NCBI GenBank assembly: GCA_050175015.1
Contig: JBFXJJ010000003.1
Location: 32,001 to 96,000, forward strand
Reading direction: 5' to 3'
From: Alphaproteobacteria bacterium
GTDB taxonomy: Bacteria; Pseudomonadota; Alphaproteobacteria; JBFXJJ01
DNA length: 64,000 nt
Part shown: positions 1 through 10,554 of the stretch, one piece after another
Layout: each line of letters starts with the position of its first letter
Numbering within the stretch: position 1 is the stretch's first letter
Translations under genes and position numbers: made by a program
Notes under the pieces: model-generated
Seen by the model: the letters and a program-made list of their open reading frames with translations, nothing else
Database searches by the model: none
Told to the model about the DNA's origin: nothing

Positions 1-1298
1 GGAAAATAACTTTTTATTTCTTCATAAATACGCTCTATTCCAGGTCCACAGGCGGTAAAAGATTCAAGCTCTCCACATTCGGGGCATTTCTCGGGGTATC
101 TAATATTATAGTTGCAGTGATGACAAACCAACCGATTTTGAGAACGATGTTCAACCAACCACGCAGAACAATTAGGACACTGCATACGATGACCACACGA
201 GCGGCATAAAGTCAAAGGAGCATAGCCTCTACGGTTTAGAAAAAGCAGCGTTTGCTCTTGCTGTTCCAGATTTTGGCAAATGGCCTGCTTTAATGGTTCA
301 GAAATCCAAACGTCCCGTTTGGTCGGATATTTCTTTAAATCTATCAATTGAATTTCTGGCATAGAGGCGCCAGCAAAGCGCTCAGGCAGGGTTACTTGAG
401 AATATTTTTCTTTTTGAACATTTACGATTGTTTCAATAGATGGCGTTGCGGAAGAAAGCAATATTGGAATTTTATTGATGCTGGCTCTAACAATTGCCAT
501 ATCCCTTGCATTATAAATATTTCCTTCTTCCTGTTTGAAAGATGGGTCGTGTTCTTCATCAATAACAATGAGACCTAAATTGTTAAAAGGCAGAAATAAT
601 GCTGAACGTGCGCCGGAGACAACTTTAATTTCACCAGAAATAATACCCTGCCATGTCTCCCGCCGCATTTTATTGGTAAGATTTGAGTGCCATTCGCAAG
701 GCATTATGCCAAATCGTTTTTTAAACCGTTCTTTCCACTGAACACTTAATGATATTTCTGGCAGAAGAACTAGCACCTGTTTTTTTTCTTTTAATGTTTT
801 GGCAATCGCTTCAAAATAAACTTCCGTTTTGCCAGAACCTGTTACGCCATCAATTAACGTTGCCGAAAATTCATTTACCAATTTGTTTTCTAAATTTTTA
901 ACAGCTGTTTCTTGTTCCGTAGAAAGCGCTATAGTATCAAAATTTTCTTCTGGCTGCGGAAAGATGGTTTTTTTAGGAATGTCGAATATCTTAGGCGGCG
1001 ACATCATCATTTTCAGAACTAGTCCCTTATCAATCATATTATATGAAGATACCCAATCAACAAATTTTATGTTTTCCAGCGTTAGTGGCTGATTTTCTAA
1101 AATATTTATAATCGGTTTGACTTTGTCTTGAGGAATGTCTGAAAAACTCTCACTCCAAACAACGCCTGTTTTTATGCTTTTACCAAATGGAACCTGAACA
1201 AAATCGCCAATGTTAACCTCAAGATTATCTGGAACCAAATAATCAAAAGCTTTATTAAATGGAAGCGGCAATAAAACTGCGATTTGTTTCTTTTCCAT
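1..1298 (-). CDS. priA: Primosomal protein N' (5' part; runs off window start)
   Basis: Not in the ORF track because truncated. Manual minus-strand reading from ATG at 1298: MEKKQIAVLLPLPFNKAFDY..., Walker A GVTGSGKTEVY, DEEH box, LASATP, and CxxC zinc-finger pairs near positions 70-210. Confidence 0.95.
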   Translation of the reverse strand, partial: MEKKQIAVLLPLPFNKAFDYLVPDNLEVNIGDFVQVPFGKSIKTGVVWSESFSDIPQDKVKPIINILENQPLTLENIKFVDWVSSYNMIDKGLVLKMMMSPPKIFDIPKKTIFPQPEENFDTIALSTEQETAVKNLENKLVNEFSATLIDGVTGSGKTEVYFEAIAKTLKEKKQVLVLLPEISLSVQWKERFKKRFGIMPCEWHSNLTNKMRRETWQGIISGEIKVVSGARSALFLPFNNLGLIVIDEEHDPSFKQEEGNIYNARDMAIVRASINKIPILLSSATPSIETIVNVQKEKYSQVTLPERFAGASMPEIQLIDLKKYPTKRDVWISEPLKQAICQNLEQQEQTLLFLNRRGYAPLTLCRSCGHRMQCPNCSAWLVEHRSQNRLVCHHCNYNIRYPEKCPECGELESFTACGPGIERIYEEIKSYF

Positions 1299-1411
1299 CT
1301 TTTTACTTTCTACAGATATGCTATTATCAAAATGTTAATTTAAAGCCCTTATAAAGACTTAATGTAAATTAAAAAAGACTATAACAAAAATTATAAAAAG
1401 AGGATAGAATT

Positions 1412-2071
1412 ATGAAGTTTTTTGTTGATACCGCAGATATTGAAGACATTAAAGAATTAGCAAAAACAGGAATGGTAGACGGCGTTACTACGAATCCAAG
1501 CCTTGTTGCCAAGTCGGGTGCTAATATGAAAGAGTTAATTGCAGAAATCTGCAAAACTATTTCTGGACCTGTCAGTGCTGAAGTTACGGCTCTTGATTTT
1601 GAAACAATGATGAAAGAAGCTAATGAGCTTAGAAAGATTGCCAAGAATGTTGCCATTAAAGTTCCATTAACAATGGACGGACTTAAAACCTGCAAAACCT
1701 TAAGCTCAGAAGGAACTATGGTAAATGTTACGCTGTGCTTTACCGCAGGTCAGGCAATTTTAGCCGCCAAAGCTGGAGCAACTTTTGTTTCACCTTTTGT
1801 CGGCAGGCTCGATGACTTAGGTGTCAGTGGTATGCAGTTGATTGATGATATAGTTGGCATTTATGAAAACTATGAGGCTTTTAATACGGAAGTTTTAGTT
1901 GCTTCTGTAAGAAGTGTTGAACACGTAGTTGATGCCGCTCGTTATGGAGCCCACGTTGTAACTGTTCCTCCTAAGATTATTAAACAATTATTCCACCACC
2001 CGCTAACGGACAGCGGTATCAAAACCTTTATGGAAGATTGGGCAAAAACAGGTCAATCAATTTTAAAATAA
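1412..2071 (+). CDS. tal: Transaldolase / fructose-6-phosphate aldolase family
   Basis: [35 protein letters not shown] motifs; AGGA RBS. Confidence 0.93.
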
Positions 2072-2081
2072 CTGAAGAAAA

Positions 2082-3056
2082 ATGAATCAAGACCTTGAAA
2101 AAAATAAAGCAATTTATTTTTGCGGCGATGAGAAACTTAAAGCTCTTATTGCCGCTTGGCTTGATTGGCTAAAACTTGAAAAAAGAGTATCTCTTCATAC
2201 GATTGATGGGTATGCCAGAGACTTAGCCGCTTTTTTAGGTTTTGCCTGTGAACACACAGGAGATCTTCCCACAATAAAAATTTTAAATAATCTTAAAATC
2301 GCAGATTTTAGGGCTTTTCTTTCCTTAAGACTGGCAAGTGGCATCTCGCGCTCTTCTATGGCAAGAGCGATGTCCAGTCTGCATAATTTTTATAAATGGG
2401 GACGCAAAGAGAAAAAACTTTTTAACGATAATATTAAGGGTGTCAAAGCACCTAAAGTGCCTAAGTCTGTTCCCAAACCTTTAGCCAAAGATGAAGCTTT
2501 TGATGTTATCGAAATTGCTAAAGAGCTTTATGATGAACCGTGGCTGGCTAATCGTGATGCCGCTATCTTTACGCTGCTCTATGGCTGCGGTCTTCGTATC
2601 AGCGAAGCACTCTCTCTTGATATAAAAGATATTCCTGACAGTTCGTTTTTAAAAATTAGAGGAAAAGGTGATAAGGAAAGAATAGTTCCTGTTTTGCCTG
2701 AAGTAAAAGAAGCCATCTTGAAATATTATAACAGCCGCCCTTTTACTAAAGAAAAAGATGAGCCTCTTTTTGTTGGTCTTAGAGGCAAAAGACTTGATCC
2801 TGGGGTTGTGCAGAGACAAATGAGAAAAATCAGAGCCTATGCTGGGCTTCCAGAAACGGCAACGCCGCACGCTCTTAGACATAGTTTTGCGACGCATCTT
2901 CTTGAAGGCAGCGGAAACTTGCGAGCGGTTCAAGAACTTTTAGGACACTCGTCATTATCAACAACGCAAAGATATACCGAAGTTGATACAGGAATGATGC
3001 TTAAAATTTATAATAAGGCTCACCCTAGAGCAAAAAAAACAAAAGAAGATGAATAA
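2082..3056 (+). CDS. xerC: Tyrosine recombinase XerC
   Basis: LYGCGLRISE, GKGDKER, TPHALRHSFATHLL, LLGH..LSTTQRY; priA-tal-xerC order typical of Alphaproteobacteria. Confidence 0.9.
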   Translation: MNQDLEKNKAIYFCGDEKLKALIAAWLDWLKLEKRVSLHTIDGYARDLAAFLGFACEHTGDLPTIKILNNLKIADFRAFLSLRLASGISRSSMARAMSSLHNFYKWGRKEKKLFNDNIKGVKAPKVPKSVPKPLAKDEAFDVIEIAKELYDEPWLANRDAAIFTLLYGCGLRISEALSLDIKDIPDSSFLKIRGKGDKERIVPVLPEVKEAILKYYNSRPFTKEKDEPLFVGLRGKRLDPGVVQRQMRKIRAYAGLPETATPHALRHSFATHLLEGSGNLRAVQELLGHSSLSTTQRYTEVDTGMMLKIYNKAHPRAKKTKEDE

Positions 3057-3119
3057 ATTTGTATTTGATTATTGCCAAAATAAAATGAATAAGCTAAAAG
3101 ATAAAAGCTTTCTTTGAAC

Positions 3120-3210
3120 GGAGAGGTGGCCGAGTGGTCGAAGGCGCACGATTGGAAATCGTGTGTGCGGCAAAACCGTACCGAGGGTTCGAATCCCTCT
3201 CTCTCCGCCA
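3120..3210 (+). tRNA. tRNA-Ser (anticodon GGA)
   Basis: GGAGAGG acceptor stem, TGGCCGAGTGG D-arm, CACGA-TTGGAAA-TCGTG anticodon arm, long variable arm, GGTTCGAATCC T-arm, encoded CCA. Confidence 0.97.
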
Positions 3211-3245
3211 ATTTACAATCCAATAAAATTTGCTAAAGTTTATCA

Positions 3246-3281
3246 AGCCCGCAGAAAAAAGAGTTTTTTAAGCGGGTTTTT
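3246..3281 (+). terminator. Probable intrinsic terminator after tRNA-Ser
   Basis: AAGCCCGC...GCGGGTTT stem followed by T-run. Confidence 0.5.
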
Positions 3282-3520
3282 GTTTGTTTAAATCCGATGC
3301 AATTCATTGACATCTAAAAAATGGGGGTACATTTAGAGGTGTGTTTTAAGAACCAATTAGGATATATCGCTATAATTTTCATGGGTGTCTTCATATTTTG
3401 TATAAGATAATGTAATTCTATTACGAAGAACTTATCTCCACTCTAAACAAAAGGTTAGTTCTGTTCTGAAAAACGTGGAGCTTTTGCATAAAGTTGACAA
3501 TGCCTAATTATATAGTTTTT

Positions 3521-3676
3521 TTAATTTTCTAAAAGTTCGCTTTTGATTGTTAGTTTAAAATCAGGATACCAGAAAGGTTGGTTCTTAAACTGCACTTGTT
3601 TTGTTTCTGCAGCACTATCAGGTTTCTCTTCTAAATCGCTGGGCGATTAGAAATAAAAAGAATAGAAATGACGCAT
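3521..3676 (-). pseudogene. Possible gene relic
   Basis: Frame reads MRHFYSFYF*SPSDLEEKPDSAAETKQVQFKNQPFWYPDFKLTIKSELLEN*; protein-like but interrupted. Confidence 0.3.
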
Positions 3677-3848
3677 AAAATAATCTTTCGTTTGTCCAGA
3701 TTTTACCAACGATATTTTGATTAAACAACAAATTATGAAGTAAGAACAAAGCATTTATTGTCAATGAATACTATTATATGTATTATTAAGTATAATACAG
3801 CGTTTACTTTTAATTATTTTAGAAAATTTTTGTAAAAGGAAGTGGTAT

Positions 3849-5447
3849 ATGACAACACTTGATATGTTTTGTTTGACGATTTACTTTGTATTAGTTGCCA
3901 TCGTTGCTATATGGACTGGACGAGGTAGTCGCAAAGACAGTAAATCATTTTTTCTAGCAGGAGGGTCCATTGGCTGGGTAGCTATTGGTGCCAGCATTTT
4001 TGCCAGTAATATCTCTACAGAACATTTTATTGGTTTGGCTGGAACTGGAGCGAGTTCTGGTTTGGCTGTAGCCCAATTTGAAATTTTAGCCTGTTTGATT
4101 CTGTTATTGTTAGGTTGGTTGTTTGTGCCGTTTTACCTGCGTACGGGTGTTTTTACTATGCCTGAATTTTTAGAAAGACGTTTTAATTCCAAATGTCGAA
4201 CCTATCTTTCTGGAATTTCGATTGTAGCTTATGTGTTTACCAAGGTCAGCGTGGCTGTCTATGCTGGAGCATTGGTGCTGAACACCATGCTTGGCTGGAA
4301 TATGTGGCTAGGCGCTATAGCTCTTATTTTGGCAACAGGGGTATATACTGTTTTTGGTGGTTTGAAAGCGGTTATTTATACTGATTTCTTCCAAGCTTTT
4401 GTATTGGTGCTAGGTGCTGCTATCTTGACTGGCATTGCTGTAACTAAGGTAGGGGGCGTCCATGAATTACTAATCCAAACACCACCAGAATTTATGAGCC
4501 TGTGGAAAAGCGCATCAGATCCTGATTTCCCGTGGACAGGAATTATTTTTGGCGCACCTCTGCTTGGAATTTGGTATTGGTGTACTGATCAAATGATTGT
4601 ACAACGCACGCTGGCTTCAAGAAATGTTGACGATGCTCGCAAAGCAACGGTTATGGCGGGCTTTTTAAAAATCCTGCCAATGTTTCTGCTAGTGCTTCCT
4701 GGTTTGGCTGGAAGAATTATTTATCCTGATGTCGCTCCAGATGCTATATATGCGACTATGGTTAATAACCTGCTCGTACCAGGAGTGAAAGGTTTTGTGG
4801 TTGCAGCCTTGCTTTCTGCCCTGATGAGTTCGCTGTCGTCAGTATTTAATAGTGGTGCAACTCTTATGGTTATGGATTTTTACAAAAGGTTTAAACCTGA
4901 AACACCAGAAAAAAAACTGGTACATGTTGGACAAGCAACAACAGGATTTTTGATTCTAGTCAGCTTGGCGTGGCTGCCGTTTATTGGCGTTATGAGCAAC
5001 CAGCTTTATGTATATTTACAATCAGTACAAGGTTATATTTCTCCACCAATTACCGCTGTATTTCTTTTGGGCGTATTGTGGAAGAGGGCTAATGGAAAAG
5101 CGGCTTTTGCCGCACTGATTACGGGTTTTATTGTGGGAGCCGCTCGCTTTCTTACGGAAGTATTGGTTAAATCAGGCATCTTGTCTCATAGGTTTTTTAC
5201 CCTGTTTGCTGGGATTAATTTTCTTCATTTTGCCTTTTTCCTGTTCGCATTATCTTTATTGGTAATTATTGTGGTTAGCTTGCTTACAGCTCCACCTACA
5301 AAAAATAATTTATCTATTTTTGCGCAGACTAAAGATACTGGTGAAGTAGTTGCTAAGCCGCAAGCCCTAACGGTAATGCTCAGTATATTGTTAGGTTTTG
5401 TAGTTATCGGCATTTGGCTAATTTTTAGTCCTCTGGTTTTTAATTAG
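3849..5447 (+). CDS. Sodium:solute symporter (SGLT-like sugar cotransporter)
   Basis: FFLAG, ASNISTEHFIGLAGTG, TMPEFLERRF, WYWCTDQMIVQR motifs of the SSS/SLC5 family; many TM segments. Confidence 0.92.
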   Translation: MTTLDMFCLTIYFVLVAIVAIWTGRGSRKDSKSFFLAGGSIGWVAIGASIFASNISTEHFIGLAGTGASSGLAVAQFEILACLILLLLGWLFVPFYLRTGVFTMPEFLERRFNSKCRTYLSGISIVAYVFTKVSVAVYAGALVLNTMLGWNMWLGAIALILATGVYTVFGGLKAVIYTDFFQAFVLVLGAAILTGIAVTKVGGVHELLIQTPPEFMSLWKSASDPDFPWTGIIFGAPLLGIWYWCTDQMIVQRTLASRNVDDARKATVMAGFLKILPMFLLVLPGLAGRIIYPDVAPDAIYATMVNNLLVPGVKGFVVAALLSALMSSLSSVFNSGATLMVMDFYKRFKPETPEKKLVHVGQATTGFLILVSLAWLPFIGVMSNQLYVYLQSVQGYISPPITAVFLLGVLWKRANGKAAFAALITGFIVGAARFLTEVLVKSGILSHRFFTLFAGINFLHFAFFLFALSLLVIIVVSLLTAPPTKNNLSIFAQTKDTGEVVAKPQALTVMLSILLGFVVIGIWLIFSPLVFN

Positions 5448-5498
5448 AGCGTATGTTGTTTAATCGGAATTATTCTGACGGAATAAAAAACGCCATAT

Positions 5499-5513
5499 GT
5501 ACTCTTTTTGTTC
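5499..5513. promoter_or_regulatory. Alphaproteobacterial LexA (SOS) box
   Basis: GTAC-TCTTTTT-GTTC (reverse complement GAAC-N7-GTAC) directly abutting a -35 hexamer. Confidence 0.7.
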
Positions 5514-5542
5514 TTGACATTTGGAGCTTTTTCCCTTATAGT
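5514..5542 (+). promoter_or_regulatory. sigma70 promoter of toxin gene
   Basis: TTGACA-N17-TATAGT. Confidence 0.75.
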
Positions 5543-5588
5543 GATTTTTAATAATCCTTAAGGATAACTTATATTATCGATTTAGTAT

Positions 5589-5664
5589 AAGCCCTGTTTG
5601 AATACTTTTTTAAAGTTGTGTTTTGTTTGCAGCTTTAGGAGATTTTCGAACAGGGCTTTTTTTT
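5589..5664 (+). terminator. Long hairpin with T-tract in toxin leader
   Basis: AAGCCCTGTTTGAA...TTCGAACAGGGCTT outer stem, AAAGTTGTG/TGCAGCTTT inner stem with G-U pairs, long T-run. Confidence 0.55.
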
Positions 5665-5695
5665 ATGTTTTAAAATATTATGAAGGGATAAAAAA

Positions 5696-7177
5696 ATGTC
5701 TAATGAGAATATTAAAGAAAATAGTTTGTTAAAAAATACTTTAGCTGAGAACTAAAGTTCTGATTTAGAAGATGTTGTAAAGGTCAAAACCATTTTAGGA
5801 AACCTTGGTTTTTATGAACCAGAAGAAAGGATAGGAGAAAGCAGCGCTAATATATCACCCTATCCTAATGCTAATTTGTTTAACGGGATTAGAAAATATC
5901 AAAAAGCCAAGGGATTAACCATTGACGGAGTTATGAAGCCAGATGGAGAAACAGAAAACAGTTTAAAAGATATTCTCTCAGGAAGAATTTTTCCTATAGA
6001 GGGCGTTTCTAAAAATAAGCAGATCTTTGAGAATGGTGCATTTAAGGGTTTGAACGATTATATAAGTTCGAACAGTTCCGTTAATAATGATGATGTTTTA
6101 AATGTCAAGAAGGTGCTGGTTAAGGCAGGGCATTATGAACCGAACAGCCGAGCAGGAGAAAGTGTCTCTAACTTAAGCGGTTATCCTGATGAGACTTTTT
6201 TTAATGCTATAAAGAGCTTTCAGAAAGACAAAGGTTTATTAGTTGACGGAGTAATGAAGAAAGGCGGTGAGACCGAGAGCGCATTGATGAACAGTTTTAT
6301 GGAACCAAGTGAGAAAGAGAAAGCAAGGTTAAAAAAAGCTGGGATTTATAACAAAGTAAGATTTATGACTGAACCTGTTGCCAACAAAGATAACTCTCAA
6401 GAAAACAAAAGCTCAATAACACAGGCTCAAGAAACAAACTCTCAAAATAAAGATGTTAACAAAACGCTTTCTAAAGAAAACAGTATAGATGCCGACAAAC
6501 TAACCATAAATGATTTTGGAAAAAAGGGAGAAAAATGTATAAATATTAATACGTTTCAAAATACTTTTCCTAACAAAGCCAGTGCAGAGGCTCAAAGACA
6601 AGGTATTGTTTATCGGGAAGTAAATCCTGATGCTGGAAAGAACACGGCTATTTACATGGCAAATGAAATGAATAAAAATTCAAAGGAAGTACAGACTGAA
6701 ACCTATAAACAAAATTCAAGTTTTTATAGTGATGTTAATGACAATAAGAAATGGGATCATAAACCTCAAATCAAAAATGAAATTACCAATGGCTTAAATG
6801 TTGAGATCAAAAAGCCTAGAGATGGAAACCCTAATATCCAGCCTCCTGTTAACTATAGATCTAAAGATGGTACTTTACATAATGTAACAACAATCAAAGG
6901 CGATGATAAGAATGTATACGATCATGACATCTGGTCTAATGTGCATTATGGTTATGTTGGCAGAGCTAATGAAAGTTCAAAAACTTTTTTAAAAGTAGGA
7001 AGCTTTGTAGAAGACTTGGTTAAAAACAGAAGTTTTGAGCTCAAAGACTTAGAAGCTGTTAACCTTGGTTCGAAACTTTGGGATAAATACGGTTCAAAAG
7101 GAATAGATATAACTCCTGAAATTTTAAATGAAGAAAGCATAAAAAATAAAGATAAATTAAGCACTTACCCTAGATAA
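5696..7177 (+). pseudogene. Polymorphic toxin: two peptidoglycan-binding-like repeats, low-complexity linker, C-terminal Ntox44-type RNase; in-frame TAA at codon 20 (residual ORF 5876-7177)
   Basis: Repeats ending IRKYQKAKGLTIDGVMKPDGET / IKSFQKDKGLLVDGVMKKGGET; toxin motifs KWDHKPQI, DIWSNVHYGYVGRA, DLEAVNLGSKLW; ATG 5696 with GGGA RBS is in frame with 5876, TAA at 5753-5755. Confidence 0.8.
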
Positions 7178-7715
7178 CACAAGTTAAAACAAACATAACA
7201 AAGGCTGTAAGAGATAGGGATATACTCTTATCTTTATCTCTTACAAGCATAAATATATTATAAATATATATAATAGGAAAAATATATTGTATATAATAAA
7301 AAGGGGCAGTAATTAACATAACAAGTCGTCCTACAGAACGCTCTATTGTTAGATAGAAAAAAAACCATATGAAAAACTTTATTAATTGAAAAAAAATCAG
7401 AAGGAATATTGCTTGTTTTTGATAGGTATTCCAATTTTTTAATTTTAAATAACTATATAAATAAAATAATATTATCAAAGATAAAAATATGCAAAAACAA
7501 AAACCAGTCCAGACTATGATATTATGATATTGGTAATTTTGAACTATATATGAACCTATAAAGTGAATCATATAAAATATAGGGCCAAAGATAATAGAAC
7601 TGATATAATAATGCAAACCAACAACATATCTATCATTAAGAATAAAAAACTGTATCAAAGCTAGAAGAGCAATAACACCGACTTTAAACCATTTATTTTG
7701 AAGAATTTTTAACAC
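7170..7715 (-). CDS. Multi-TM membrane protein, paralog 1 (candidate immunity)
   Basis: GTG start with AGGA RBS; hydrophobic; 3' end overlaps the toxin 3' end by 8 nt. Confidence 0.75.
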   Translation of the reverse strand: MLKILQNKWFKVGVIALLALIQFFILNDRYVVGLHYYISSIIFGPIFYMIHFIGSYIVQNYQYHNIIVWTGFCFCIFLSLIILFYLYSYLKLKNWNTYQKQAIFLLIFFQLIKFFIWFFFYLTIERSVGRLVMLITAPFYYIQYIFPIIYIYNIFMLVRDKDKSISLSLTAFVMFVLTCVI

Positions 7716-7923
7716 TTAACGCTTTTTCCTAAAGTTCAATATAAAATCACTTTTTAAAATCTTAACAATGATATTATAATTAAACAACAAAATCTTTTTT
7801 TAAAGATACCTATGCCGAAGCCGTTAAACTTTTAGGATAAATATGGTTCAAAAGGAATAGATATAACTCCTGAAATTTTAAATGAAGAAATCATAAAAAA
7901 TAAAGATAAATTAAGCACTTACT

Positions 7924-8460
7924 CTAGATAACACAGGTTAAAACAAACATAACAAAGGCTGTAAGAGATAGGGATATACTCTTATCTTTATCTCTTACAA
8001 GCATAAATATATTATAAATAGAAACAAGATAAAAAGGAAAACGAATATAGTAAAAAGGAGCGATTATCAGCCATAATCCTCTTCCTAATGAATACTTTTC
8101 TGTTAAATATATAAAAATACAAATAAAAAACTTTATTAATTGAAAAGTAGAAAAAAGAAATATCGCTTGTTTTTTGTAAGTTTTCCAATTTTTTGATCTT
8201 AAATATTTATATAAGTAAAACAGTATTATCGAAGCCAATATTATAGATACACAAAAACCTATCCAACCTATTGGATAAGCGTAAGGGCGGTAATTTTGAG
8301 TTACATAAGATGCTATATAAAAAGCGGGAGAAAAGATAAGATAACTAATAAGAAGATGAAAACCTAAAATTAAGTTATTATTATAACAAAAAGACGGAAT
8401 TATAGTGATGAAAACAATGAAGCCTATTTTAAACCATTTATTTTGAAGAATTTTTAACAC
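7924..8460 (-). CDS. Multi-TM membrane protein, paralog 2 (candidate immunity)
   Basis: Same MLKILQNKWFK start and same C-terminal ~30 aa as paralog 1, diverged middle. Confidence 0.75.
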   Translation of the reverse strand: MLKILQNKWFKIGFIVFITIIPSFCYNNNLILGFHLLISYLIFSPAFYIASYVTQNYRPYAYPIGWIGFCVSIILASIILFYLYKYLRSKNWKTYKKQAIFLFSTFQLIKFFICIFIYLTEKYSLGRGLWLIIAPFYYIRFPFYLVSIYNIFMLVRDKDKSISLSLTAFVMFVLTCVI

Positions 8461-8668
8461 TTAATGCTTTTTCCTAAAGTTCAATATAAAATCACTTTTT
8501 AAAATCTTAACAATGATATTATAATTAAACAACAAAATCTTTTTTTAAAGATACCTATGCCGAAGCCGTTAAACTTTTAGGATAAATATGGTTCAAAAGG
8601 AATAGATATAACTCCTGAAATTTTAAACGAAGAAATCATAAAAAATAAAGATAAATTAAGCACTTACC

Positions 8669-9208
8669 CTAGATAAAAAACTTATACATTATAAATGATG
8701 TAAGAGATAAAGATATGCTTTTATTTTTATCTCTTATTATCATAATAGCATTGTAAATATATATAATCGGGAGAATATATTGCATATGATAAAAAGAAAA
8801 TATAATTATCATAGCACGTCGTCCTACAGAACGTTCTATTGTTATATAGAAAAAAAGCCATATGAAAAATTTTATTAATTGAAAAAATGAAAAGAAAAAT
8901 ATTGCTTGTTTTTGATAGTTTTTCCAGCTTTTCGATTTTAAATATTTATATAAATAAAACAATATTACTAAAGATAAAAAAATACAAAAATAAAAACCAG
9001 TCCAGACTATGATATTATGATATTGGTAATTTTGAACTATATATGAACCTATGAGATGTAATATATATAGCGGAAGGGAAAAAAGATAACCACTAACAAA
9101 GATACCAAAGCCAAAGAACAATTCATATTTAAAGAAATAAAACTGTATCAGAGCTAAAAGAGCAATAATCCCTATTTTAAACCATTTGTTTTGAAGAATT
9201 TTTAACAC
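8669..9208 (-). CDS. Multi-TM membrane protein, paralog 3 (candidate immunity)
   Basis: Same N-terminus; shares IGSYIVQNYQYHNIIVWTGF and ERSVGR with paralog 1. Confidence 0.75.
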   Translation of the reverse strand: MLKILQNKWFKIGIIALLALIQFYFFKYELFFGFGIFVSGYLFSLPLYILHLIGSYIVQNYQYHNIIVWTGFYFCIFLSLVILFYLYKYLKSKSWKNYQKQAIFFFSFFQLIKFFIWLFFYITIERSVGRRAMIIIFSFYHMQYILPIIYIYNAIMIIRDKNKSISLSLTSFIMYKFFI

Positions 9209-9416
9209 TTAACGCTTTTTCCTAAAGTTCAATATAAAATCACTTTTTAAAATCTTAACAACGATATTATAATTAAACAACAAAATCTTTTTTTAAAGAT
9301 ACCTATGCCGAAGCCGTTAAACTTTTAGGATAAATATGGTTCAAAAGGAATAGATATAACTCCTGAAATTTTAAATGAAGAAATCATAAAAAATAAAGAT
9401 AAATTAAGCACTTACC

Positions 9417-9505
9417 CTAGATAACACAGGTTAAAACAAACATAACAAAGGCTGTAAGAGATAGGGATATACTCTTATCTTTATCTCTTACAAGCATAAA
9501 TATAT
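9417..9505 (-). pseudogene. Truncated fourth paralog (last ~29 codons only)
   Basis: Matches the 3' end of paralog 2 (IFMLVRDKDKSISLSLTAFVMFVLTCVI*), then similarity stops. Confidence 0.8.
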
Positions 9506-9576
9506 ATAATAGCTACTATAAATGCTGAAATATTTTTAATAAAGAGTTTTGTAAAAGCAAGTATGATTAAGAAAAA

Positions 9577-10554
9577 CTATGGCATTAAAACGATGTCTGC
9601 AAATATAGGTCGGTGGTCTGAGAAAAGAAAATCACCAACATCATAATTAGTCGTTTTTATTTTGCTAGAAGTTAAAATATGATCGATTGCTAAGCCAAAT
9701 ACTTTGGGGAATGGTATGCCTCTAATTGACCAACTGTTTTTTATTCCAAATCCCGTCATCGCACTTTTTAATTTAGAATTTTTTAGCAGTTTTCGAAAAC
9801 GATAATTGTAAGGTGTTATATTAAAATCACCGACGAGCAGTTTATATTGATTGTCATCTTTTTTTACTACATCTGCGATATATTCAAGTTCTTTAGTGTT
9901 ATTAAGCCAATAATTTTTTGTCGCAGGTGGAATAGTGTGCAGCCCAAACCATCTAATATCTTTATTATGAAATTTTATCGTTGCCGCTAAATATTTATTC
10001 CAATGCTGCGGAATATTATTAGAGCTGGTATTGACCAACTCATAACGGCTCAACAATGCAAATCCAAAGTTTCCGTTTTCTAAAACCATAAATTGATAGG
10101 GATATTTTTCTTTTAATCTATCTAAAAGGTCTTTTTGTTTAGGAGTAATTTCTTGAAATTGGATAACATCAAAAGACTTATCATTATTAATAATCCAATT
10201 ATAAATCGCATCAATTTTTTGATTTTCATAATACATATTAAATTGAAGAACAGATAGTTTTTCATCATCATTATTCTTTACTGAATCTTTTATATAATAT
10301 GGAAAAATCAGCAGAAAATTAAACAGTAATAAAGCCAAAGCCAAAATTACATATCTTTTTTTATTAATATAAAAAGAAAATAAAAAGACAAAGACGGAAG
10401 CCCAAAAATATTGCCAAACAAAGTGTGAAAATAAATCAAAGAACCAAAACCAGCGTCCTAATAAACCAATCAAATTTACGTATAGTAACAGGCGGATTAA
10501 TCCTGATAATTCCTTATTAGCTAGTTTTTTTATCTTGTCGTTAATACAAATCAT
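9577..10554 (-). CDS. Membrane-anchored endonuclease/exonuclease/phosphatase (EEP) family protein
   Basis: N-terminal TMs, FQE, GDFN, IDHIL, SDHRP motifs. Confidence 0.85.
   Translation of the reverse strand: MICINDKIKKLANKELSGLIRLLLYVNLIGLLGRWFWFFDLFSHFVWQYFWASVFVFLFSFYINKKRYVILALALLLFNFLLIFPYYIKDSVKNNDDEKLSVLQFNMYYENQKIDAIYNWIINNDKSFDVIQFQEITPKQKDLLDRLKEKYPYQFMVLENGNFGFALLSRYELVNTSSNNIPQHWNKYLAATIKFHNKDIRWFGLHTIPPATKNYWLNNTKELEYIADVVKKDDNQYKLLVGDFNITPYNYRFRKLLKNSKLKSAMTGFGIKNSWSIRGIPFPKVFGLAIDHILTSSKIKTTNYDVGDFLFSDHRPIFADIVLMP

Follow-up and report, generated by a model that had tools for sequence, protein, structure and literature searches.

The window analysed here (64,000 nucleotides, C3:32001-96000) comes from contig C3 of an uncultured alphaproteobacterium, whose genome of 2.53 Mb is assembled in 49 contigs and is 99.4% complete. 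Close to its start it contains a gene for a toxin-like protein with two peptidoglycan-binding repeats and a C-terminal domain of family Ntox44, facing a tandem array of genes for small membrane proteins. The locus as a whole is probably a chromosomal polymorphic-toxin module of a bacteriocin-like kind, with toxin tips that act on the cell envelope, membrane-bound immunity and control by LexA and by a transcribed leader, the module now being interrupted. According to this explanation a constant part, consisting of promoter, leader, a hydrophilic N-terminus of 19 residues, two peptidoglycan-binding repeats and the start of a linker, would carry exchangeable tips, namely Ntox44 on contig C3 and a domain of the Tlde1/YkuD L,D-transpeptidase type on contig C7. 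The convergent proteins with six transmembrane segments (TM) would be the cognate inner-membrane immunity proteins against Ntox44, each expressed from its own promoter; their genes would have been amplified by unequal crossing-over at the repeated 3' end of the toxin gene and would then have diversified to cover the toxin variants of competitors. Ntox44 itself would be an enzyme that attacks the envelope from the periplasm, the cell wall or a lipid-linked precursor being the best guess for its substrate. Two elements would restrain transcription, LexA bound to a box that directly adjoins the -35 hexamer and a hairpin of terminator type in the leader. In the present state both toxin copies would be stopped early and the immunity genes kept.

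The toxin gene starts on the plus strand at ATG 5696, behind the ribosome-binding site AAGGGA at 5683-5688, with 19 codons (MSNENIKENSLLKNTLAEN) followed by an in-frame TAA at codon 20 (5753-5755; start region 5696-5755). From there a frame of 473 codons stays open to 7177 (5756-7177, plus strand). It encodes a first PG_binding_1 repeat (approximately 5762-5971), a second one (6086-6256), a low-complexity linker and the Ntox44 domain (6722-7078). Pfam matched PG_binding_1 in two stretches (E 1.9e-11) and Ntox44 with 42.3 bits, the cut-off being 24, and the Ntox44 homology extends past the Pfam range to the end of the protein. The first repeat begins two codons past the TAA, and the sole suitable start for a product that includes all of it is ATG 5696. 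The toxin lacks a signal peptide, its 19-residue N-terminus being hydrophilic, and Pfam at E <= 0.1 recognised PG_binding_1 and Ntox44 only, with no marker or trafficking domain of type V, VI or VII secretion. A metagenomic protein of 560 aa (P0030) was collinear with the toxin along its entire length (BLASTP E 2e-28), and displayed a short leader, two PG_binding_1 stretches, a long linker and an Ntox44 domain of 22.4 bits, just below the 24-bit cut-off, and its uninterrupted N-terminus starts 19 residues before repeat 1. Hence the family as such has this architecture, and the stop in the present genome is a lesion. A word search with the whole protein returned only the two proteins of the window's own genome.

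The second of these two proteins shows the sign of a polymorphic toxin. The constant module (5484-6367, plus strand), which covers promoter, leader and the N-terminal 223 codons, was 99% identical to C7:15976-16859, and the promoter-leader block occurred at only these two places of the genome. The C7 copy displayed TTGGCA as its -35 hexamer and the same TAA, and its frame runs into an unrelated tip that matched Tlde1_dom (36.9 bits) and YkuD (30.4 bits), both above their cut-offs. By these matches the tip is a toxin domain of the peptidoglycan L,D-transpeptidase type. It is followed 3' by a co-directional open reading frame (ORF) for a membrane protein of 147 aa with at least three hydrophobic segments and no Pfam family, then by a remnant of 31 codons from the 3' end of Ntox44 and by a convergent membrane paralog of 179 aa that is 50% identical to those of the array. 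Polymorphic toxin systems are recognised by just such a combination: the carrier is constant, the tips are swapped, and the end of the displaced tip remains along with its immunity gene. Just downstream of this second locus, in the stretch C7:9000-22000 (500-5073, minus strand), lie three large ORFs (410, 815 and 302 aa) without Pfam family, the first of which encodes a Gly/Ala-rich hydrophobic hairpin resembling, by eye, alpha-helical components of pore-forming toxins. A third, short paralog of 173 aa was found 16 kb before the window (stretch C3:14790-18059, 1312-1833, minus strand); it has only one peptidoglycan-binding repeat (44% identity to repeat 2), its C-terminus is rich in Cys, and its gene adjoins that of a phage-type integrase.

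The membrane genes face the toxin gene. Candidate 1 (7170-7715, minus strand, 181 aa, about six TM) overlaps the toxin 3' end by 8 nt and is followed by candidate 2 (7924-8460, minus, 178 aa), candidate 3 (8669-9208, minus, 179 aa) and a broken fourth copy (9420-9638, start approximate, minus) that matches residues 105-181 and contains four stops. The tandem array spans 7077-9505, with units at 7077-7830, 7831-8575 and 8576-9323 and a partial one at 9324-9505. Each unit of approximately 750 bp begins with the final ~100 nt of the toxin gene, further copies of which lie at 7826-7931, 8571-8676 and 9319-9424; a block of 182 nt occurs four times, the last ending at 9505, copies 1, 2 and 4 being 97-98% alike and copy 3 only 71%. 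Including the C7 locus, the membrane gene was found joined to an Ntox44 3' end five times. Paralogs 1 to 3 are 64-68% identical and display four to six hydrophobic segments each according to a Kyte-Doolittle rule. The four intact paralogs, three in the array and one on C7, share 45 identical nucleotides upstream and identical first 11 codons, and variability is highest in codons ~20-60. All intact copies are open, and dN/dS among the four ranged from 0.28 to 0.56. The membrane paralogs are real genes under constraint, which multiplied through unequal exchange where the toxin 3' end is repeated and diverged later. The convergent proteins with six TM are probably the Ntox44 immunity proteins. 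Scans for known families gave no match in Pfam or PADLOC and only sub-threshold noise in NCBIfam. An AlphaFold 2 (AF2) model of the immunity protein was all-helical and of low confidence (pLDDT 59.6, four sequences), and a co-fold with the toxin, run without controls, scored 0.00 and supports no verdict.

A reading of the same DNA made from sequence only, without database searches (hereafter the sequence-only reading), had anticipated much of this anatomy. Its gene with two peptidoglycan-binding-like repeats and an Ntox44-type C-terminus was borne out by the profile searches, as was the missing signal peptide or secretion marker. The overlapping convergent multi-TM gene, which it saw at least three times, was recovered as three related ORFs and a broken fourth. 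Its proposal of a polymorphic toxin module gained from the same N-terminus with another tip on C7, and its candidate membrane immunity array from the five Ntox44 3'-end linkages and the constraint on the open copies. It overlooked the TAA at codon 20.

What Ntox44 attacks was approached through its relatives. At E <= 1e-3 the domain matched 151 proteins; the architecture scan comprised 79 proteins, that is the window's own domain and the best 78 of the 151, and Ntox44 was recognised in 76 of the 79 (PF15607; the 184-aa domain of the present toxin scored 44.8 bits). The closest relatives included the metagenomic protein P0003 (54%) and P0004 (50%), and the nearest ones came from alphaproteobacterial metagenome-assembled genomes, in keeping, like the type of LexA box, with an alphaproteobacterial origin of the window. 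Envelope-related partners among the 79 were PG_binding_1 (five), CHAP, LysM, SLT and SH3_3 (two each) and Peptidase_M15_4, PG_binding_3 and Phage_lysozyme2 (one each), and carriers of a delivery type were WXG100 (four), Phage_Mu_F (three), PAAR (two) and RHS (one). In P0005, a close metagenomic relative, Ntox44 stands at the N-terminus and is followed by LysM and Phage_Mu_F, while P0003 opens with a Cys-rich stretch that, by eye, is like the C-terminal motif of MuF. To judge from their sequences, these MuF-linked proteins suggest delivery by phage particles in some lineages.

The genes next to Ntox44 were frequently of a membrane type. Counting ORFs on the same strand that start -60 to +100 nt from the toxin stop, and using ORFs of 100-260 aa from the same loci as controls, 44 of 78 genome loci had such a downstream ORF, and 28 of the 44 encoded at least one predicted TM or anchor, against 59 of 201 controls (Fisher 4e-5); 11 of the 28 had two or more TM and 15 a single N-terminal one. 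Among 58 non-redundant metagenome loci the corresponding figures were 29 of 37 against 39 of 122 (Fisher 9e-7). The loci of P0003, P0004 and P0030 were left out of this tally. Many neighbour N-termini were, by eye, lipobox-like or lipoprotein-like, and nine of the 13 neighbour clusters with two or more members were membrane-anchored; ten representatives displayed no Pfam family. Exported or membrane-anchored immunity is a hallmark of toxins acting outside the cytoplasm, such as the wall and membrane effectors of type VI and type VII secretion systems (T6SS, T7SS). Membrane-anchored neighbours, a peptidoglycan-binding carrier and a sister tip of periplasmic type make an envelope target likelier than RNA, and we regard the envelope as the probable, though far from certain, site of action. 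The catalytic nature of the domain is suggested by its conserved residues. Zhang et al. 2012 (PMC3482391) describe Ntox44 as all-alpha with motifs DxK, GNxxxG and DxxxD; the present domain displays D45-H-K47, S105-N106-V-H-Y-G110 and an invariant D142, the first Asp of DxxxD not being evident. Conserved Asp, Lys and Asn indicate an enzyme and not a pore former. An AF2 model of 6623-7174 was of good quality (pLDDT 85.7, pTM 0.85), and a structure search of the ESM Atlas returned Ntox44 clusters only.

The expression signals lie directly in front of the toxin gene. A sigma-70 promoter, TTGACA-17-TATAGT (5514-5542, plus strand, 11/12), was the best of 23 promoter-like sites in 5400-9700. It is abutted at its -35 hexamer by a direct repeat resembling a LexA box (GTACTCTTTTTGTTC, 5499-5513, plus strand), which matches GTTC-N7-GTTC at 7/8 positions and reads GTAC-N7-GTTC. 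Between this promoter and the ribosome-binding site lies a leader hairpin (13 + 15 bp, 68 nt, 5590-5657) followed by U8 (5590-5665 in all, plus strand), which resembles an intrinsic terminator or attenuator. The RNA 5550-5700 had a minimum free energy of -44.5 kcal/mol (z = -6.25; none of 200 shuffles folded as well), and a scan of 5300-9800 with Rfam gave no match at E <= 1. The leader hairpin may serve as an attenuator. Promoter and hairpin had both been named by the sequence-only reading, and they held up.

The same reading had proposed SOS control through a LexA box, of which the type was substantiated and the match proved imperfect. The genome contains lexA (C8:305-991; TIGR00498, 168.6 bits against a cut-off of 110.95) and recA (TIGR02012, 573 bits), and an exact GTTC-N7-GTTC precedes both lexA (C8:1043, GAACTAAACTAGAAC) and recA (C2:22353), in agreement with the LexA consensus GTTCN7GTTC given for Caulobacter in the consulted part of PMC12700426. 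In the whole genome there are 36 exact boxes and 1253 with one mismatch, or 0.51 per kb; the 7/8 box taken alone is weak because one-mismatch boxes are this frequent. Its position adds weight, since GT.C-N7-GTTC joined to TTGAC within 0-3 nt occurs at only three genomic sites, the toxin promoter being one. As read from the DNA, LexA control of the toxin promoter is plausible. The gammaproteobacterial box CTGT-N8-ACAG (with at most one mismatch) was found 16 times in the window, against 12.4 expected, and never at the promoter, and was rejected.

Further LexA-type boxes were encountered elsewhere. At the other two of the three sites, C2:156105 (156105-156767) and C4:171974 (minus strand), an exact box is fused to TTGACA and followed by mutually homologous leaders (TGTGATATAA ... 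TCTGTNAGGTTCAGTAACT); the C2 promoter precedes a protein of 179 aa with a signal peptide and no family, and near the C4 promoter there are small ORFs only, with an ORF of 141 aa ~950 nt further on. Two of the 36 exact boxes (GAACTATATATGAAC, plus strand) lie at 7541-7555 and 9034-9048, inside immunity paralogs 1 and 3, where they cover the codons for GSYIVQNY; they may be LexA sites, or may have arisen by chance in AT-rich coding DNA and been inherited by duplication. At C1:299190-299215 two overlapping exact boxes cover the promoter of a thermonuclease-like ORF of 176 aa, a probable SOS gene of the organism. An ORF of 405 aa on C4 (205177-206394) matches the N-terminal part of Cas13a (NF038188, 174.8 bits, cut-off 150) and adjoins a tyrosine recombinase and an exact box.

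The locus is flanked by genes for a sodium:solute symporter and a membrane protein of the endonuclease/exonuclease/phosphatase (EEP) family, with no phage genes seen adjoining. Between 3500 and 12500 the toxin gene, the immunity paralogs, the EEP-family gene and a methyltransferase gene are accompanied by overlapping shadow ORFs only, and no lysis gene was found there among ORFs of at least 50 aa, either in the ORF list or by Pfam. The EEP-family gene directly past the array (9577-10554, minus strand) is of low G+C and encodes a membrane-anchored protein (PF03372, E 6e-21). The G+C content of 5500-10500 was 21-37%, and 21-30% from 7000 on, against ~35% genome-wide. A family-level and order-level search for related genomes returned, from the set searched, the window's own genome alone.

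Several observations weigh against the proposed module. The TAA at codon 20 interrupts the frame in both toxin copies, and the first ATG, GTG or TTG past it is TTG 5876, which lies within repeat 1. The C3 and C7 copies differ at seven coding sites, six nonsynonymous and one synonymous, too few to test and compatible with a toxin gene without constraint. The LexA box of the promoter is one mismatch off the consensus, and neither the ORF list nor Pfam revealed a lysis gene or a secretion marker at the locus. A word search with the immunity protein gave a single match, the C7 paralog, and a hidden Markov model built on the four paralogs gave no match at E < 0.4 in the ORFs of the 79 genome loci and nothing at E <= 1 in those of 80 metagenome loci. 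As the family was seen in one genome only, the conservation of the pairing rests on a single genome, and the pair could be shown in no second one. For the Ntox44 model, Foldseek searches of PDB and BFVD gave no match at E <= 0.001 and no nuclease, and a sequence and profile search of PDB gave none at E <= 1. The neighbour tally drops to 15 of 34 membrane-anchored when counted by sequence cluster; its loci are related and not independent, its TM calls come from a crude hydropathy rule and its neighbours are raw ORFs. Literature passages naming Ntox44, supplements being outside their scope, report no experiment on its activity or immunity.

The interruption lends itself to a further reading, namely a disarmed locus in which a shared nonsense mutation was spread by gene conversion and the immunity genes live on as orphan protection against the Ntox44 toxins of neighbours. 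This is quite possible, if slightly short of an even chance, and it overlaps with the toxin module favoured here, because it concerns the present state of the locus and not the kind of system. Besides the stop shared by both copies, the lack of an in-frame start before 5876, the six nonsynonymous differences against one synonymous and the constraint on the immunity genes speak for it. The stop was confirmed by a contig from one public run (X1, probably the source sample) which covers 5484-6349 without any difference, TAA included, at a depth of 27 against 14.9 in the unique part (~2x). An alternative genetic code at codon 20 was ruled out: TAA, being the commonest stop of the genome (696 cases in ORFs of at least 300 aa), is not reassigned. 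On the other side, the remaining 473 codons are open, the near-invariant residues (D-x-K, S-N-x-x-x-G and the invariant Asp) are kept, promoter and ribosome-binding site are intact, and gene callers report a product of 414 aa from ATG 5933 that keeps one whole peptidoglycan-binding repeat and the toxin domain. Moreover, X1 is kept as contigs, which drop rare variants, so that a minority intact allele may be hidden. The full-length toxin is probably not made, or only an N-terminally shortened product from a downstream restart.

Other alternatives concern the nature of the toxin and the way it leaves the cell. The favoured module would release it without a dedicated secretion system, by lysis; the toxin might instead be the cargo of a machine encoded elsewhere, such as a VirB-type type IV secretion system (T4SS), a contractile phage-tail-like particle or holin-type export. 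A VirB4 homolog (C9, 52.5 bits) and a sheath of phage type (C5, 89.2 bits) are encoded in the genome, PG_binding_1 is common in T4SS toxins of Xanthomonas, and Ntox44 rides on PAAR (2/79), WXG100 (4/79), Phage_Mu_F (3/79) and RHS (1/79) carriers. Yet both machines are distant from the locus, no TssC (the T6SS sheath gene) was found in the genome, and the toxin lacks any marker domain at E <= 0.1. Its C-terminus is the toxin itself, Ntox44 reaching the last residues with no further Pfam family, so that XVIPCD, the C-terminal signal domain of the Xanthomonas-type T4SS toxins (X-Tfe) and a domain with a model in Pfam, would find no place there. Export by such a machine is accordingly unlikely. 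Far less probable still is a phage-style lysis pair. An N-terminal PG_binding_1 with an enzymatic C-terminus and no signal peptide is a layout of endolysins from phages of Gram-negative bacteria, and it would be in line with multi-TM neighbours of small size and with a promoter possibly under SOS control. Holins, however, are smaller and co-transcribed, whereas the membrane genes here are convergent, triplicated and diverged, with ~180 aa and ~6 TM; no phage genes were seen beside the locus, Ntox44 was recognised in 76 of the 79 relatives, several of which are built on toxin carriers, and the tip swap is typical of polymorphic toxins. Ntox44 could also be a cytoplasmic RNase, as in its Pfam description, with membrane proteins that block its import across the inner membrane and that could do so without binding the toxin. 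Pfam labels the domain a predicted RNase, and later papers, in the passages seen, repeat 'RNase' without data; the label has no experiment behind it there, and the consulted text of Zhang et al. 2012 (PMC3482391) calls catalysis unclear in nature for the remaining Ntox domains. No nuclease was matched by the fold, the neighbours elsewhere are predominantly exported or lipoprotein-like, and the sister tip on the same carrier is an enzyme of periplasmic type. A cytoplasmic RNase thus seems improbable. The nuclease premise of the sequence-only reading became doubtful in this envelope-type context, and its contrast with the layout of nuclease toxins is weakened.

Among known systems, the polymorphic toxins of Zhang et al. 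2012 (PMC3482391, in the parts consulted) resemble the locus in several ways: the N-terminal region stays constant and the C-terminal tips are exchanged, replacement of a tip leaves its end and its immunity gene standing behind the new one, the Ntox44 motifs DxK and (G/S)NxxxG occur, and PGB1 is named there as an accessory adhesion domain of such toxins. The locus differs from those systems by lacking a trafficking domain, by its added LexA-type box and terminator-like leader, and by a candidate immunity gene that is convergent and polytopic instead of co-directional and soluble. The likeness to colicins, claimed before by the sequence-only reading, was maintained for the layout only. Pore-forming colicins (A, E1, Ia and others) display an SOS operator at a strong promoter and, on the opposite strand, a polytopic membrane immunity gene with its own promoter; the present locus likewise combines a putative operator of SOS type, a strong promoter and a candidate membrane immunity gene facing the toxin gene. 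In contrast to these colicins, its tip contains conserved polar residues and no hydrophobic hairpin, and only two PG_binding_1 repeats and a low-complexity linker precede it, no translocation or receptor domains being recognised. Furthermore, it is chromosomal and not on a plasmid, its box is the alphaproteobacterial direct repeat, its immunity gene is amplified, and no lysis gene was recognised. Colicin M, pesticin and the M-type pyocins are enzymes that cross the outer membrane only and attack the wall or lipid-linked precursors, with immunity at the periplasmic face of the inner membrane. They resemble the present system in the proposed working principle alone: there is no similarity in sequence or fold, the immunity proteins here are polytopic with very short loops, and no part for TonB- or Tol-dependent uptake was identified. 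The C7 tip recalls the Tlde1/Tldi1 T6SS pair of Salmonella through its matches to Tlde1_dom and YkuD above cut-offs, but differs in its peptidoglycan-binding carrier, in a candidate immunity protein that is a membrane protein of 147 aa, and in the missing T6SS sheath gene. A literature search found no description of a peptidoglycan-binding or LexA-linked toxin of the present kind.

Many genomes carry Ntox44 under the label of a predicted RNase with no known immunity partner, T6SS and T7SS loci of well-studied bacteria among them. Zhang et al. 2012 (PMC3482391), in the part consulted, list no immunity family for it, and if immunity is indeed membrane- or lipoprotein-bound and the target lies in the envelope, this absence may be explained by the membrane-bound nature of the partner. 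Existing annotations of Ntox44 would then be wrong, and a new cell-wall or membrane target of antibacterial toxins would become testable. A wider and more tentative idea, which we consider rather unlikely in its entirety, is that Ntox44 is a widespread envelope-attacking family with membrane-bound immunity, deployed here as a secretion-independent, LexA-controlled bacteriocin on a peptidoglycan-binding carrier whose periplasm-acting tips each have a polytopic guard; should it be true, this would be a bacteriocin class not yet described. The locus can serve as a compact model for the way in which recombination between repeats of a toxin 3' end multiplies and diversifies immunity genes, and it is a first candidate for an SOS-linked protein bacteriocin on a peptidoglycan-binding carrier in Alphaproteobacteria.

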